Shown here one piece after another: positions 10,135 to 26,804 of a stretch of 42,541 nt of DNA. A model generated the notes under the pieces. That model did no database searches, had not been told where the DNA came from, and was given only the letters and a program-made list of their open reading frames with translations. Made by a program: the position numbers and the translations under genes. The stretch comes from a virus. Lineage: Duplodnaviria > Heunggongvirae > Uroviricota > Caudoviricetes. The DNA lies in the IMG/VR virus record IMGVR_UViG_2529293215_000009; one strand, given 5' to 3'. Positions within the stretch are counted from its first letter, which is position 1. Each line of letters begins with the position of its first letter.

Positions 10135-10442
10135 TAACGACATTATTTGTTGAATCAGACGAGCCTCTGGTATGTGCCGCCGGAATGTCGGTTTGTGGCG
10201 GAACGCTGACCGGTGTTTATTTCGGGGATTTGCGCGGTTATCCCTGGCATTCACTGGATGACGCATTTCCGCCTGATATGGAGGCTGTCGTGCTGATTGT
10301 TCAGTATGGTGACCAACAGGAACTGCGCATCGGCCATATGGGGTATGAAGGCTTTTTTATTGATGAAGAAACCGGAGCCTGCCTTGAAGATGAGGACGGA
10401 CAGGTGACGCACTGGTGCCATATTTCAGCTTTACCGGAATGA
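10131..10442 (+). CDS. hypothetical protein (accessory early region)
   Basis: 103 aa; start overlaps upstream stop (ATGA). Confidence 0.4.
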   Translation: MITTLFVESDEPLVCAAGMSVCGGTLTGVYFGDLRGYPWHSLDDAFPPDMEAVVLIVQYGDQQELRIGHMGYEGFFIDEETGACLEDEDGQVTHWCHISALPE

Positions 10443-10456
10443 CGGGAGGTGAATGC

Positions 10457-10807
10457 GTGAGAAGTTATATTGATAATGAAAAACTGAAGACAATCAGCGA
10501 CTGTCTTAGCTTGCTGGCAAAAATAAAAGAAACCATTGAAGAGATTAAATTTCAGCTTGAATACGAACCCTGTGGCGATGATACATGGCGTAACTCTGCC
10601 AGAAAAGCACTGGCTGTCTTTCAGAAACAACGCCGGACTGTTGAATACCGCCTTGCTGTATTGCGCCAGGAGGAAAAGGAAAGAAATATAAGACGTCATG
10701 AACTCGTTAATGATTTTCTTGTTCGTGAATTAAAGGAGCGTGTGCCGGAGTCGGTATTTTTTGAGTGTGAGGCTGTTGCCCGTAGCAAAGCACTGGAAAC
10801 TGATTAA
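10457..10807 (+). CDS. hypothetical protein (start uncertain)
   Basis: ORF 10415..10807; GTG at 10457 preceded by GGGAGGTGA; coiled-coil-like composition. Confidence 0.35.
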   Translation: MRSYIDNEKLKTISDCLSLLAKIKETIEEIKFQLEYEPCGDDTWRNSARKALAVFQKQRRTVEYRLAVLRQEEKERNIRRHELVNDFLVRELKERVPESVFFECEAVARSKALETD

Positions 10808-11345: not shown

Positions 11346-11631
11346 TTCTCTGTTGTTCTGGTGCTTATATATCACATCCTTTTTCGGCGCATTTGTTATT
11401 ACCCGGTGGTTATGTCGAAAAATCATCTGCTTTTTTGATAAAAGACATCCGGTTGAACGGGCGGCTGATGCGCTCATTCAGCAGGCCATTGTGTTATATA
11501 GCGGTGAATTTTTCTGCCGGATAACAACCAGAGATGGCTGGCACATAATGATTATTCCACCAACACACCATGCCCGGTGGGATGAGGCAGAAAAGGCTTT
11601 CCATGTCCGTAAAAAGGTAAATACGGTATGA
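11335..11631 (+). CDS. hypothetical small membrane protein
   Basis: 98 aa; hydrophobic N-terminus LLFWCLYITSFFGAFVITRWL. Confidence 0.35.
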   Translation: MDNSSLLFWCLYITSFFGAFVITRWLCRKIICFFDKRHPVERAADALIQQAIVLYSGEFFCRITTRDGWHIMIIPPTHHARWDEAEKAFHVRKKVNTV

Positions 11632-12137
11632 GAGGAAAACTGATATCCGCCATTCATGTGGCAAAGCGCGAGCTTGCCCTGGATGATGAGACTTATACAT
11701 CCGCGCTGCTGGCAGCCACCGGCAAAACCAGCTGCCGGGATATGTCACCGGATGAGTTATCCCGCGTGCTGGATGTTTTCAAAAAACGCGGTTTTAAAGT
11801 GCGTCAGAACCCGGTTAACCGGGCCTTAAAACCGGGTACGGTGACCGCCAAAATTCGCGCCATCTGGAAGGTGATGCACCGGCAGGGCTTTATCACCGAT
11901 GGTGCGGAAACCGCCCTTAACCGCTGGGTGAAATCGCAGACGGCCGCGCAGAACGGCGGCGAAGGTGTGGCAAACTGGCAGTGGCTGGAGCAACACCCCG
12001 CCCTGGCCTCAGATGTGCTGGAGCGTCTCAAGCGATGGCACCGCCGCAAAATGCTGGCCGCGATGGGAATGCCCGAACGCACGCTGATGGGGTATGACGC
12101 CGTTTGCAGGCAGTATGAAAAATCACTTCCCCGTTAA
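11628..12137 (+). CDS. gemA: GemA-like protein (Mu gp16 family)
   Basis: N-terminus LISAIHVAKRELALDDETYTSALLAATGKTS...FKKRGFKV matches the conserved gp16/GemA pattern; sits just before mor as in Mu. Confidence 0.75.
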   Translation: MRGKLISAIHVAKRELALDDETYTSALLAATGKTSCRDMSPDELSRVLDVFKKRGFKVRQNPVNRALKPGTVTAKIRAIWKVMHRQGFITDGAETALNRWVKSQTAAQNGGEGVANWQWLEQHPALASDVLERLKRWHRRKMLAAMGMPERTLMGYDAVCRQYEKSLPR

Positions 12138-12142
12138 CCCCA

Positions 12143-12172
12143 AATCCCGCCACAACGCGGGATTTTTATTTT
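12143..12172 (+). terminator. intrinsic terminator at end of early operon
   Basis: AAATCCCGC cacaac GCGGGATTT hairpin followed by TTTTATTTT, right after gemA stop. Confidence 0.65.
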
Positions 12173-12206
12173 AAACTTACCGGGAACGCGAGAACCGGAG
12201 GCTGAT

Positions 12207-12632
12207 ATGGCAGAAACTCAGATGAGCATGTTTGGTGGTGACAGTGAGCAACTGCACGCCCTTATCGACCGCCTTGATGACATCCCTGATGATGTTCTCA
12301 AAAAGAACTGGCCGCGGACCCTGTCAGAACTGGTTGAAGTCACCGGCGCAGAACTTCAGCGTCAGGGGATTGAGCCGGTACTGGCCGGTAAACTGGCACG
12401 CAAGGTGGCTGCGGCTCAGGCAGCCTATATGGGCGGACGGGGTTATTACCTGCCGGTCGGGGAATCTCTCTTTGCCGAGCTGCGAAACAATGAGATATTT
12501 TCGCGCTGGGACCGGGGCGAGAAAATTGAATCCCTTCGCCGCCATTACCGGATGTCAGAAACCCAGATTTATACCGTCATACGTGAACAGCGCCGTCTGC
12601 ATCTGGCAAGAACGCAACCGCCACTTTTCTGA
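12207..12632 (+). CDS. mor: Mor/C-family transcriptional activator
   Basis: 141 aa; LRNNEIFSRWDRGEKIESLRRHYRMSETQIYTVIREQRR parallels Mu Mor IRDLRIWNDFNGRNVSELTTRYGVTFNTVYKAIRRMRR. Confidence 0.8.
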   Translation: MAETQMSMFGGDSEQLHALIDRLDDIPDDVLKKNWPRTLSELVEVTGAELQRQGIEPVLAGKLARKVAAAQAAYMGGRGYYLPVGESLFAELRNNEIFSRWDRGEKIESLRRHYRMSETQIYTVIREQRRLHLARTQPPLF

Positions 12633-12703
12633 TATTCCGCAAAGCCTGCCGCCTTTCCTTCACCGTTACGCTGACTCAGAGAACATCATGAGACAGCGTA
12701 ACA

Positions 12704-16930: not shown

Positions 16931-18519
16931 TGGGACGCATAATTGATCTTGACGGAAAACCTTTCTCCTTTGACCCGGAGATGCAGAGTGCCGCGCTGGA
17001 TATTCCGCAGATTGCCAGCCGTTATATTGAACATCCGGCCTCGGGTATCACCCCGAACCGGGCGGCACAGTGCCTTCGCGGGGCTGAACGTGGCGATCTG
17101 ATTGCCCAGTCCGATCTTGCCGCTGACATTGAAGAAAAGGATACCCACCTTTTTGCTGAGCTGGGCAAGCGACGCCTTGCCATTCAGGGGGTGCCCTGGA
17201 GTATTGAGCCGCCACCGAACGCCAGCGCGAATGAGAAAAAGGACGCGGAAATGCTCGACGAATATCTGCATTCCGCCGACTGGTTTGATGCCATGCTGTT
17301 TGATGCCACCGATGCCATCCTGAAAGGCTATTCCTGCATGGAGATTGAGCACGGGATGCTCGGTAAAATGCACATCATCCGCGCCATCCGCTGGCGTGAC
17401 AGCGGGCATTTCTGCCTTAACCCGGATGATTTGAGCGAACTGCGGCTGCGTGACGGCAGCCATGCCGGGGTGGCGTTTCAGCCCTTTGGCTGGATAGTGC
17501 ATCAGTCACGTTCACGCACCGGTTACGGCGGCGCAACGGGGCTTGTCAGGACGCTTATCTGGCCGTTCATTTTCAAAAACTATTCCGTGCGCGATCTGGC
17601 TGAATTTCTGGAGGTGTACGGCCTGCCGATGAAGGTCGGTAAATACCCGTCCGGGGCAACGCCGGAGCAGAAAAGCGCCCTGATGCGGGCGGTGATGGAT
17701 ATCGGGCGACGTACAGGCGGGATCATCCCGGCCGGGATGTCGCTGGAGTTTCAGGCGGCAGCGAACGGTCAGGCCGATCCGTTTGAAACCATGATTTCGT
17801 GGGGGGAGCGTTCCATCTCCAAAGCTATCCTCGGCGGCACGCTGACCACGGAAGCCGGAGACAAGGGCGCGCGCTCGCTGGGTGAAGTGCATAACGAGGT
17901 GCGCCGGGAAATCAGGGATTCTGATTTACGTCAGCTGGCCGCCACGCTGAACCGCGATCTGGTGTATCCGCTGTATGCCCTGAACACCGCCCACGCCATA
18001 GATATCCGTCGCCTGCCGCGTATCTGTTTCCAGACAAAAGAGCCGGGGGATATCACCAAAATCACCAGTGCGGTGATGCAGCTCAGTACGGGGATGGATA
18101 TTTCTGATCCCTGGATACGTGAGCAGACGGGTATTCCGCAGCCCACGCCCGGCGAAGCCATCTTCCGTGTCCGTCAGAGTGGCAATGAACCTGCTCAGAC
18201 AGACAAAGAGATGCCACCGGAAAAACAGGAGAAGACAGAGCAGACGGCGCTGGCTGCCAGACTGCCGGAAGCGAAGAGCAGCCCCCGAGATGAACTGGAC
18301 GACATGGGGGATGCGGTGCCTGCCCGTCGGTTACAGGAGGCCATCGACCCGGTACTGGAGCCGGTCATTGATGCCATCAGAACGCGGGGGCTGGCGGAGG
18401 CACTGGCAGACCTGCCTGCCCTTTACCGTGAAATGGATGATTCCCGCCTGATGACGCTGCTCAGTGATGCCATGTTTGCTGCGGAAATGAAGGGGATGCT
18501 GGATGGCACAAGGGATTGA
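16921..18519 (+). CDS. portal protein (Mu gp29-like)
   Basis: 532 aa directly after large terminase and before F-like gene; GTG start at 16921 uncertain. Confidence 0.75.
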   Translation: MLVVGRIIDLDGKPFSFDPEMQSAALDIPQIASRYIEHPASGITPNRAAQCLRGAERGDLIAQSDLAADIEEKDTHLFAELGKRRLAIQGVPWSIEPPPNASANEKKDAEMLDEYLHSADWFDAMLFDATDAILKGYSCMEIEHGMLGKMHIIRAIRWRDSGHFCLNPDDLSELRLRDGSHAGVAFQPFGWIVHQSRSRTGYGGATGLVRTLIWPFIFKNYSVRDLAEFLEVYGLPMKVGKYPSGATPEQKSALMRAVMDIGRRTGGIIPAGMSLEFQAAANGQADPFETMISWGERSISKAILGGTLTTEAGDKGARSLGEVHNEVRREIRDSDLRQLAATLNRDLVYPLYALNTAHAIDIRRLPRICFQTKEPGDITKITSAVMQLSTGMDISDPWIREQTGIPQPTPGEAIFRVRQSGNEPAQTDKEMPPEKQEKTEQTALAARLPEAKSSPRDELDDMGDAVPARRLQEAIDPVLEPVIDAIRTRGLAEALADLPALYREMDDSRLMTLLSDAMFAAEMKGMLDGTRD

Positions 18520-19834: not shown

Positions 19835-19955
19835 CGGTCAGTGGCGGGGGTTGAACCCGCATACATGATCCACCCGGAGGCAGGCACCGACTTTACCAGT
19901 TAAGCGTACACTGACCGCCTGTTTATTTTATATTCATCCTTTATGCGGAGGCAAT

Positions 19956-20429
19956 ATGTCATCCATTGATGCCGCTGTCGTTGTTGACGTTACGCGTCTC
20001 CAGCGGGTCTTTGCCCGGCTTCAGTTTGTGGGTGGAGGGAAAGACCTGGCCCGCAGTGTGGCGGCGAGTCTTCTGTCATCGTCAGAAATGGCGTTTGAAC
20101 AGGAAAAAGAGCCGGACGGCGAACGCTGGCATGACTGGTCAGATCCTTACCGCAAGTGGCGTACCCGTAAGGGATACATGCCCGGCAAAATCCTGACGCT
20201 GAACGGCGATCTGGCCCGACGCCTGACCACGGATTATGGCGATACCTGGGCGCTGATTGGATCAAATGAGCCTTATGCGGCCATTCATCAGTGGGGTGGC
20301 CTGCCTGGTATGCCACCGGGACCGGCGGCCATTGGCGCACGCCCGTATATGGGCTTTGATCAGGTGGCAGAGCAGGAGATCATGGACGAAATCAGAAAAC
20401 GCTTTAAAAAGGCCACAGAAACGCCTTAA
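19956..20429 (+). CDS. virion morphogenesis protein (Mu G-like)
   Basis: 157 aa; conserved position between F and protease I. Confidence 0.65.
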   Translation: MSSIDAAVVVDVTRLQRVFARLQFVGGGKDLARSVAASLLSSSEMAFEQEKEPDGERWHDWSDPYRKWRTRKGYMPGKILTLNGDLARRLTTDYGDTWALIGSNEPYAAIHQWGGLPGMPPGPAAIGARPYMGFDQVAEQEIMDEIRKRFKKATETP

Positions 20430-20605
20430 TTGTTTAAGGTATGCAAATGCATTACCTTACCCCCTTCAGGCGCGTGTCGTGATTTTCTAACCTGTATTTA
20501 ACGGGCTTTAAAATCTGCGTGAAGCGCCTTTGTATTTTTCCCCTGGAAGCACTTCCTGAAATCCCGCAAAACCCGCCCTGAAAATTCCCGGCTTATGCTG
20601 CCGGA

Positions 20606-21730
20606 ATGAAGACGAAAAACACGCCCAAACTTGCTTATGCCATTCTGAATGCCATCAGCCTGTCCGCAGACGGGGACGGTGACTGGTGTCAGATCATGCC
20701 AGCCGGTCGGGTAAAGGCCCGTGACGGTCGCCCGGAAAAACCGGCCGAGGGCTGGCTGATTAACCGTGCGACCGTTGAGCGCATGGTATCCCGGGTTGTG
20801 GCGCTCAATCAGCCGGTGAAAATTGACTACAACCACCAGACCCTGATTAAGGGGCATCAGGCACCGGCTGCCGGTTTTGTGATGGCCTCACCGGAGAATT
20901 TTCGCTTCAGTGAAGAGCGTGGCTTCGAGGTGCGCCCGAAGTGGAACCCTCCGGCCCTTGAACATCTGCGTAATAACGAATTCCCCTGGTTTTCACCGGT
21001 GATTGGCTATGACGAGAACACCGGCGAACCTGTCGAACTTCGGATGCTGGCTATTACCGGTGACCCCGGTCTGACCGGCATGAATCCTGTCGCCGCGCTG
21101 TCGGCGGATGACCTTTATAACGCCTTAAACCCTCCTTTAAAGGATACCTCCATGAATGAGCAATTACGCCAGTTGCTGACGGCGCTCGGTCTGACCGTGG
21201 CTGACGGTGACGAATTTACGCCGGAGCTGGGCACGGCGGCGCTGTCTGCCCTCACCGGGATCAAAACCCGTGCGGATGCACACGACAACCTGAAAACACA
21301 GGTCGCCAGTCTGTCGGCAGAGCTGGAAACCGCAAAAGGCACACCGGCTGGCGGCATTATTGATCTGACGAAATACGTGCCCGTTGAAACGTATAACGCC
21401 CTGCGTACCGAATACGTTGCGCTGTCGGCGCAGCACGGCAGCACCACGCTGGAGCAGGTGCTGGACAAGGCTGAATCCGAAGGGCGCATCTTCAAAAGCG
21501 AACGCGGCTATCTGGAACAACTGGGCGGGCAGATTGGCGTTGCGGCACTTTCTGCACAGCTTGACGCCCGCCAGCCGGTTGCGGCCCTGACCTCTCTTCA
21601 GACCGACACCGTGACCGTGCCGGATAAAAAGACTGCCACCGCTGCGCTGTCGGCTGAAGATATCGCGGCCGCCAAACTGCTGGGTAAAACCGAAGCCGAG
21701 TTCCTGAAAATGAAAGAGGAAATGCAATAA
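20606..21730 (+). CDS. prohead protease / scaffold (Mu I-like)
   Basis: 374 aa immediately upstream of major capsid gene; Ala-rich coiled-coil C-terminal half typical of scaffold. Confidence 0.7.
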   Translation: MKTKNTPKLAYAILNAISLSADGDGDWCQIMPAGRVKARDGRPEKPAEGWLINRATVERMVSRVVALNQPVKIDYNHQTLIKGHQAPAAGFVMASPENFRFSEERGFEVRPKWNPPALEHLRNNEFPWFSPVIGYDENTGEPVELRMLAITGDPGLTGMNPVAALSADDLYNALNPPLKDTSMNEQLRQLLTALGLTVADGDEFTPELGTAALSALTGIKTRADAHDNLKTQVASLSAELETAKGTPAGGIIDLTKYVPVETYNALRTEYVALSAQHGSTTLEQVLDKAESEGRIFKSERGYLEQLGGQIGVAALSAQLDARQPVAALTSLQTDTVTVPDKKTATAALSAEDIAAAKLLGKTEAEFLKMKEEMQ

Positions 21731-26678: not shown

Positions 26679-26802
26679 AGAAGCGGCAATTATCCTGGGG
26701 ATGGTGACAAAAAGCGGTCCGGAATGGGCGCTTAACCTCCCCCTGTCGCAACTTTACCGGCACTGCCGACAGACAGAAAAAATCATCAGAACGAAGCAGT
26801 AA
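26620..26802 (+). CDS. candidate frameshift extension of tail assembly chaperone
   Basis: +1-frame ORF overlapping chaperone 3' end and ending 2 nt before tape measure start; GGGGG run at 26644..26648 in overlap. Confidence 0.4.
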   Translation: MPESWQLTGGDQAQCRDQIEEAAIILGMVTKSGPEWALNLPLSQLYRHCRQTEKIIRTKQ

Positions 26803-26804
26803 GT

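Follow-up and report, generated by a model that had tools for sequence, protein, structure and literature searches.

The G-I spacer of an Sp18-type Mu-like prophage as a probable version of the Mu central strong gyrase site, shared with a predicted late promoter of I

Between its genes G and I, phage Mu carries the classic example of a DNA site at which a host topoisomerase is recruited, so that a mobile element of 37-40 kb is folded and its ends meet; this strong gyrase site (SGS) also serves as the usual substrate in single-molecule and cryoEM studies of gyrase. The question raised by the present window (the whole stretch of 42,541 nucleotides that was analysed) is whether the spacer between its G-like and I-like genes is a site of this kind, as had been proposed in a reading made from the letters alone (hereafter the sequence-only reading), and which parts of the spacer speak for it. 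The reading favoured here, with a probability of roughly 85%, is that the spacer is an Sp18-type version of the Mu central SGS, which shares its 176 bp with the late promoter of I (Table 1).

Homology breakpoints against E. coli genomes delimit a Mu-like prophage of the Sp18 type at 1690-40909 of the window (39,220 bp, plus strand): E. coli genome homology breaks at 1689/1690, the phage begins with TGTAACCAGG, and a 5-bp target duplication, ACGCC, flanks the element at 1685-1689 and 40910-40914. Compared with Sp18 of E. coli O157:H7 Sakai, which carries the annotation 'Mu-like phage', the prophage aligns in two blocks of 98.8-98.9% identity (98.9% overall). The repressor, transposase A and B, GemA and Mor/C-family activator genes lie 5' of the spacer region, and I, the major head gene, the tail genes, the invertase, com and mom lie 3' of it. 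A segment of the semi-essential early region (window 10138-10807) is replaced with respect to Sakai Sp18, 670 bp standing in for 204 bp, and owing to this segment the prophage exceeds Sp18 by 466 bp in its left half.

Some peculiarities of the element were seen at its borders. The left end shows the usual TG, whereas the right end reads ...CGCCGCGCTAT(A) instead of the ...CA-3' expected for a Mu-type transposon; Sakai Sp18 (locus L003, positions 10970 and 49724) has the same unusual right end, and its perfect flanking duplication is only 4 bp long (TAAA). The window flanks, 1-1689 and 40910-42541, place the Mu-like prophage within another, lambdoid prophage, the flanking genes corresponding to DUF4406, DUF4752 and a DNA-binding protein in the annotation of many STEC genomes; two records of Stx-converting phages contain a related 'inserted Mu-like phage' that is 93% identical.

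The spacer had been delimited correctly, the G-like ORF stopping at 20429 and the I-like ORF beginning at 20606. The best-conserved part of gene G is 68.5% identical to Mu G at the DNA level (blastn), and the I-like protein is 47.6% identical to Mu I. The position ascribed to the spacer, near the centre of the element, is also borne out: its midpoint lies at 48.0% of the prophage length as measured between the ends 1690 and 40909, the geometric centre being at ~21300, and the predicted cut position falls at 47.8%, compared with 48.7% for the Mu cut. In near-full-length related viral contigs the start of I is found mostly at 46-52% of the length, the provirus borders there being approximate. 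For Mu, the central position of the SGS has been found to be optimal (review PMC10052514). The description of the spacer as non-coding stands in that it lies between ORFs, but the spacer is not empty, its right third being occupied by a predicted promoter. It is also not, as had been claimed, the only sizeable non-coding gap of the structural module: the late region of the Sp18 annotation has further gaps of 118-211 bp, namely 118 bp between F and G (a gap of 121 bp in the window, 19835-19955), 126 bp before the tape measure gene (window about 26679-26804) and 211 bp in the lysis module, the G-I gap being the largest among those between head and tail genes. Rfam gave no match in the spacer at E<=1, and none at the gathering score in the whole window.

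As regards the F-G gap, genes F and G overlap in Mu, unlike in the window. The gap contains a perfect 9-bp inverted repeat, CGGTCAGTG / CACTGACCG, at 19836-19844 and 19909-19917, and its RNA (19835-19955) folds no better than shuffled sequences (z=0.07).

Table 1. Features of the G-I region and the basis on which each was placed (window coordinates).
Feature	Position	Strand	Basis
G-like virion morphogenesis gene, left border of the spacer	19956..20429	+	ORF; Pfam Phage_tail_S E=9e-34; blastn match to Mu G
G-I intergenic spacer, 176 bp	20430..20605		ORF borders; comparison with Sp18
Putative gyrase G segment / cleavage core	20436..20458		position relative to the Mu cuts only
Conserved block, homologue of the Mu SGS right arm (gyrase-wrapped T segment arm)	20464..20531		alignment with Mu; conservation across lineages
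Phased A/T tracts in the block	20481-20490 (GATTTTCTAA); 20494-20500 (TATTTAA); 20506-20514 (CTTTAAAAT)		
Variable T/C-rich linker	20532..20550		14 variable positions (15 alignment columns) in 14 Sp18-clade spacers
Predicted Mor/C-family late activator box, CTGAAATCCCGCAAAACCCGCC	20556..20577	+	recurs upstream of lys; spacing to the hexamer
Dyad CCGGC-TTATGCT-GCCGG enclosing the -10 hexamer	20588..20604		DNA fold z=-3.4; conserved as sequence
Predicted -10 hexamer of P_I, TATGCT	20594..20599	+	invariant in 14/14 clade variants
I-like protease/scaffold gene, right border of the spacer	20606..21730	+	ORF; Pfam Mu-like_Pro E=1.5e-76

The closest relative of the spacer is the site of Sakai Sp18. 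The two spacers have the same length, 176 bp, and are identical at 175 of 176 positions, the sole difference being base 20593, T here and C in Sp18, which adjoins the predicted -10 hexamer and lies ~145 bp from the predicted cut. The Sakai site is reportedly cleaved specifically by gyrase both in vitro and in vivo, with processive supercoiling enhanced. When heterologous sites were put in place of the Mu SGS, that of the Sakai Mu-like prophage was the only one among those tested that promoted Mu replication (Oram & Pato 2004, per review PMC10052514); in the SGS of Mu itself, the right arm is essential and the left arm can be deleted or altered (review by Toussaint and Higgins, PMC10052514). 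Since the Sp18 site region is identical to the present one save for one base, and since the Sakai site was tested in 2004 (per the review), the proposal of a gyrase site appears to be right but not new. Judged by its sequence, the spacer corresponds to the Sp18-type strong gyrase site of the literature; as the window carries the version that has already been tested, there is no need to postulate a novel class of element.

Comparison with Mu points in the same direction. In the G-I spacer of both Mu records, an annotated gyrase cut lies at 17879/17880, 20 nt past the G stop codon, in agreement with the placing of the Mu site on which the sequence-only reading had built; 3' of the cut follow a predicted TransTermHP terminator (17908-17953) and then the late promoter P_I (17977-18043). 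According to the cryoEM paper on the Mu SGS, the bottom strand is cut at 5'-T/GATTT and the top strand between two A, i.e., ATAA^AATC^AGCC, and the right arm wraps a GyrA CTD with its AT tracts facing the protein. The distance from the G stop codon to the motif GATTTT is 51 nt in Mu and in the window alike, so that the two spacers align ungapped. In this alignment, anchored on the stop codon, 20477-20504 of the window is identical to 17907-17934 of the Mu right arm at 23 of 28 positions, an agreement that exceeds the DNA identity of the best-conserved part of gene G and that none of 20,000 shuffles reaches (shuffle maximum, 20). Alignment with the Mu site, which had been suggested as a check, was thus positive over the right arm.

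The first 30 nt of the spacer, which include the palindrome and the Mu cut position, are only 20% identical to Mu, and similarity to the Mu cleavage core ATAA^AATC^AGCC is absent, AAAT alone being common to both at the aligned cut. Because core and left arm are reported in the literature to tolerate change, likeness in the core is not strictly defining for an SGS. Homology, conservation, position and the literature on the Sakai site together support the spacer as a probable strong gyrase site. A scan of Mu and the window with the published 133-nt Topo-Seq gyrase consensus, both exact and as a G/C-versus-A/T pattern, did not bring the Mu SGS near the top; it was dropped as supporting neither side, having failed this positive control.

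The distribution of conserved positions was followed in a wider set of loci. Searched with an I-protein profile, viral contigs yielded 70 loci, and a scan of genome contigs with a single I protein gave one locus; with other loci and the window included, the set came to 45 distinct G-I spacers from 70 sources in which both genes were present, the G proteins being 27-100% identical to the best query (the G of the window or that of Mu). The alignment of 22 lineage representatives shows one conserved block, free of indels in 21 of them. In it stand three A/T tracts, of the types TTTTAAAACG, GATTTTTAAAC and GTTTTAAAC, and the centre-to-centre distances are 21 and 11-12 bp. The window keeps the second and third tracts, has CCCCCTTCAGG instead of the first, and carries a further tract, CTTTAAAAT, 12 bp on. 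Among 14 distinct spacers of the Sp18 clade there are just 4 variable sites in 20455-20531; the variable linker that follows the block stands where the annotated terminator of Mu has its T-run.

Phasing of these tracts was assessed with a simple Fourier measure of A/T periodicity, for which the Mu right arm served as positive control and gave the second strongest peak in the Mu genome. The right-arm homologue of the window reaches a moderate value, at about the 97th-99th percentile; it lacks the first tract, and the highest peak of the window falls in another part of the spacer.

The near-palindrome AAGGTATGCAAATGCATTACCTT, which the sequence-only reading had singled out, is indeed present at 20436-20458, and is built as AAGGTATGCA-AA-TGCAT(T)ACCTT, with 10-bp arms, one bulged T and a 2-nt centre. 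Its DNA fold has z=-2.8, with 3 of 200 shuffles folding equally well; equal folding is found in 3.2% of all 27-nt windows of the 42.5 kb and in 0.15% of those matched for composition (G+C), so that the palindrome is unusual for such an AT-rich sequence and not unique. The Mu cuts at 17875^17876 (top strand) and 17879^17880 (bottom strand) map by position to 20445^20446 and 20449^20450, with the stagger AATG, and these mapped cuts fall one base from the palindrome centre. However, the 12 nt of that centre (20443-20454) contain 6 variable sites in the 14 Sp18-clade spacers, none of them compensatory. Only its position thus suggests a role for the palindrome, since its sequence is unrelated to that of the Mu core and changes among close relatives with no compensating substitutions.

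The clade counts, 4 variable sites in 20455-20531 vs 6 in the 12-nt palindrome centre, point to selection on the right-arm block and not on the palindrome, a pattern that agrees with what is reported for Mu, where core and left arm can be dispensed with and the right arm cannot. It is the block at 20464-20531 that makes the case for the site, and not the palindrome that the sequence-only reading had stressed. Within the favoured reading, the palindrome is the least supported part; the firm features are the conserved right arm and the late promoter. A hairpin following the G stop codon and common to all lineages was considered and rejected, as 23 folded representatives gave z values between -2.3 and +1.9, showing no trend, and as the palindrome of the Sp18 clade changes without compensating substitutions.

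The right third of the spacer has a different character. A box matching that upstream of I, CTGATATTCCGCAAAGCCTGCC, is found upstream of lys at 12629-12650, and the 14-nt core of the two occurs exactly only at these two places in the window. In both cases the hexamer TAYGCT stands 19-20 nt past the core CCGCAAARCC, 16 nt past the last base of the box, and the combined pattern of box and TAYGCT is likewise found in the window only upstream of lys and upstream of I; the lys promoter hexamer, TACGCT, has identical spacing, the shared regions being 20556-20608 and 12629-12672. This geometry is that of the four annotated late promoters of Mu (box CATAACCCC, 20 nt, hexamer), the box is conserved across lineages, and a Mor/C-family activator gene is present at 12207-12632 (Pfam Mor, E=2.8e-32). 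Read on these patterns, 20556-20605 is a predicted Mor/C-type late promoter, with a start point that is placed by spacing. The dyad enclosing the hexamer was examined for covariation, and its pair counts were no better than those of shuffles. An alternative -10, GAAAAT at 20580-20585, suggested by the pairwise alignment with Mu and by lineage L047, was disfavoured: its final T is lost in several clade variants, and a proper box at the right spacing is lacking.

In the region of the activator gene, a single Mor/C-family gene was seen between gemA and lys (11628-12703), in contrast to the two of Mu, mor and C. Between gemA and the activator gene, at 12142-12175, lies a strong terminator-like hairpin, AAATCCCGC...GCGGGATTT TTATTTT.

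The hexamer TATGCT ends 6 nt ahead of the ATG of I, and a Shine-Dalgarno sequence is absent. From this spacing, the start of P_I is predicted at ~20606, i.e., on the A of the I start codon, which together with the missing Shine-Dalgarno sequence predicts a leaderless I mRNA. The layout of hexamer, 6-7 nt and ATG is kept in four other lineages (L005, L029, L031 and L042), and Mu, L043 and L047 have a leader of ~30 nt with a Shine-Dalgarno sequence (~27 nt in Mu). It may tentatively be suggested, with more doubt than confidence, that in the Sp18 type and several other lineages I is made from a leaderless mRNA; if so, this would be a built-in way of holding down the amount of full-length protease compared with the capsid protein and with the scaffold, which is initiated internally, and gyrase arm, promoter and start codon would be packed in one 176-bp unit.

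The strongest ~12-bp A/T periodicity of the 42.5-kb window lies not in the right-arm block but at 20559-20626 (ranked first in 64-nt windows and second in 50-nt windows), where it overlies the predicted I promoter and the first I codons. At 110-180 bp from the predicted cut, this segment is outside one gyrase wrap, and its periodicity could reflect promoter curvature, chance or a cleavage further to the right in Sp18. In the last case the gyrase site would be in the spacer, but cleavage would occur at ~20520-20545, the tracts at 20480-20515 forming the left arm and 20559-20626 the right arm, with the palindrome incidental. This arrangement would account for the place of the strongest periodicity, for a palindrome centre that varies freely in close relatives and for the lack of sequence similarity between the palindrome region and the Mu core. 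It is nevertheless unlikely, given that 20477-20504 is homologous to the right and not to the left arm of Mu, that the distance from stop codon to block is 51 nt as in Mu, where cleavage occurs 16-20 nt after the stop, that the equivalent promoter region of Mu is not strongly periodic, and that lineages with a long leader have a quite different sequence at that place.

Still lower is the chance that the spacer is a transcription boundary only, i.e., the end of the late operon from lys to G followed by the I promoter, with the block acting as a terminator stem-loop or other RNA element. The promoter part of this explanation is well supported, the TransTermHP terminator of the Mu record at 17908-17953 exactly overlies the conserved block, and the RNA of the spacer has a fold more stable than that of shuffled sequences (z=-3.6), in which a GAUUUU...AAAAUC hairpin covers the block. 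However, a scan of 20430-20605 for a terminator, that is, a G+C-rich stem followed by a T-run, finds none: the hairpin over the block is a 6-bp A/U stem with no T-run directly after it, and the predicted hairpins are A/U-rich or have no T-run. Conservation moreover tracks the phase of the A/T tracts, without indels, and not stem complementarity, and the literature reports the Sakai site to be functional (PMC10052514). Citrobacter-type relatives (L005, Citrobacter braakii, at 1320-1345; L033 and L035-L037) have a canonical terminator, AAATGGATC...GATCCATTTT (GGATC...GATCC TTTT), between the A/T block and the I promoter, which the Sp18 type does not have; as these lineages keep the block despite a separate terminator downstream of it, termination does not explain its conservation.

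Least probable of all, and by our estimate very improbable, is that the phased repeats of the TTTnAAAC type are sites for a phage or host DNA-binding protein (a nucleoid protein or late activator) with no special part for gyrase, for although direct repeats ~11-12 and 21 bp apart are present and the unit GATTTTTAAAC / GTTTTGAAAC is recognisable in lineages of several genera, the box common to the two late promoters of the phage differs from them in sequence, and genetics, footprinting and cryoEM in Mu assign the arm to gyrase (PMC10052514; cryoEM paper).

Under the favoured reading, that of an Sp18-type SGS sharing its spacer with a late promoter, host DNA gyrase would bind the spacer following induction, as homology with Mu suggests. 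It would cleave and hold a G segment just past the G stop codon, probably in the near-palindrome at ~20446-20449, while the phased A/T-tract arm at 20464-20531 would wrap the GyrA C-terminal domain as T segment, leading to highly processive supercoiling. A supercoiled loop would then grow from the site and, because the site is midway between the prophage ends, would bring 1690 and 40909 together for synapsis by the transposase, which would speed replicative transposition. The stretch 20556-20605 would act separately, as a Mor/C-dependent late promoter from which I, T and the downstream genes are transcribed.

The comparative set may be of modest help in selecting natural variants that could explain why a gyrase site is 'strong': the right arm is free of indels even where the G protein is 27% identical to that of Mu, the core varies freely, and the one heterologous site reported to work lacks the first A/T tract. 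A small by-product, open to test, is the prediction of a leaderless promoter for I.

Among known systems, the plasmid sites of pSC101 and pBR322 and the chromosomal REP/BIME sites are likewise preferred sites of gyrase binding and cleavage, the BIMEs being palindromic and located at operon ends. They have no sequence relationship to the spacer, they function independently of the centre of a transposable prophage, and they fail to substitute for the Mu SGS (review PMC10052514).

The promoter half of the spacer resembles Mu P_I (Margolin, Rao & Howe 1989, PMID 2522923, annotated in AF083977) in its place at the 3' end of the G-I spacer, and the C-dependent late promoters of Mu in general in having a box 19-20 nt upstream of a weak -10 and a Mor/C activator encoded upstream of lys. 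In contrast, the box is CCGCAAAACCC here and CATAACCCC in Mu, and Mu P_I has a leader of ~27 nt with a Shine-Dalgarno sequence, whereas here the hexamer is 6 nt from the ATG and the mRNA is predicted to be leaderless.

With the SGS of Mu, which is cut at 17875/17879 and has a right arm reaching to about +90, the spacer shares the G-I location, the central position, the distance from stop codon to right arm, the core identity of the right arm and, in part, the phased A/T tracts. It differs in a cleavage core that is unrelated in sequence and near-palindromic, in the first A/T tract of the right arm (ATTTTTTAAAA in Mu, with CCCCCTTCAGG in its place here), in the extra tract CTTTAAAAT, which the Mu right arm does not have, and in an A/T periodicity weaker than that of Mu. 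The SGS of Sakai Sp18, finally, is the same element, with the same flanking genes, spacer length and position in the prophage; the Mu-like prophage that carries it lies in sorM in Sakai and inside a lambdoid prophage here.
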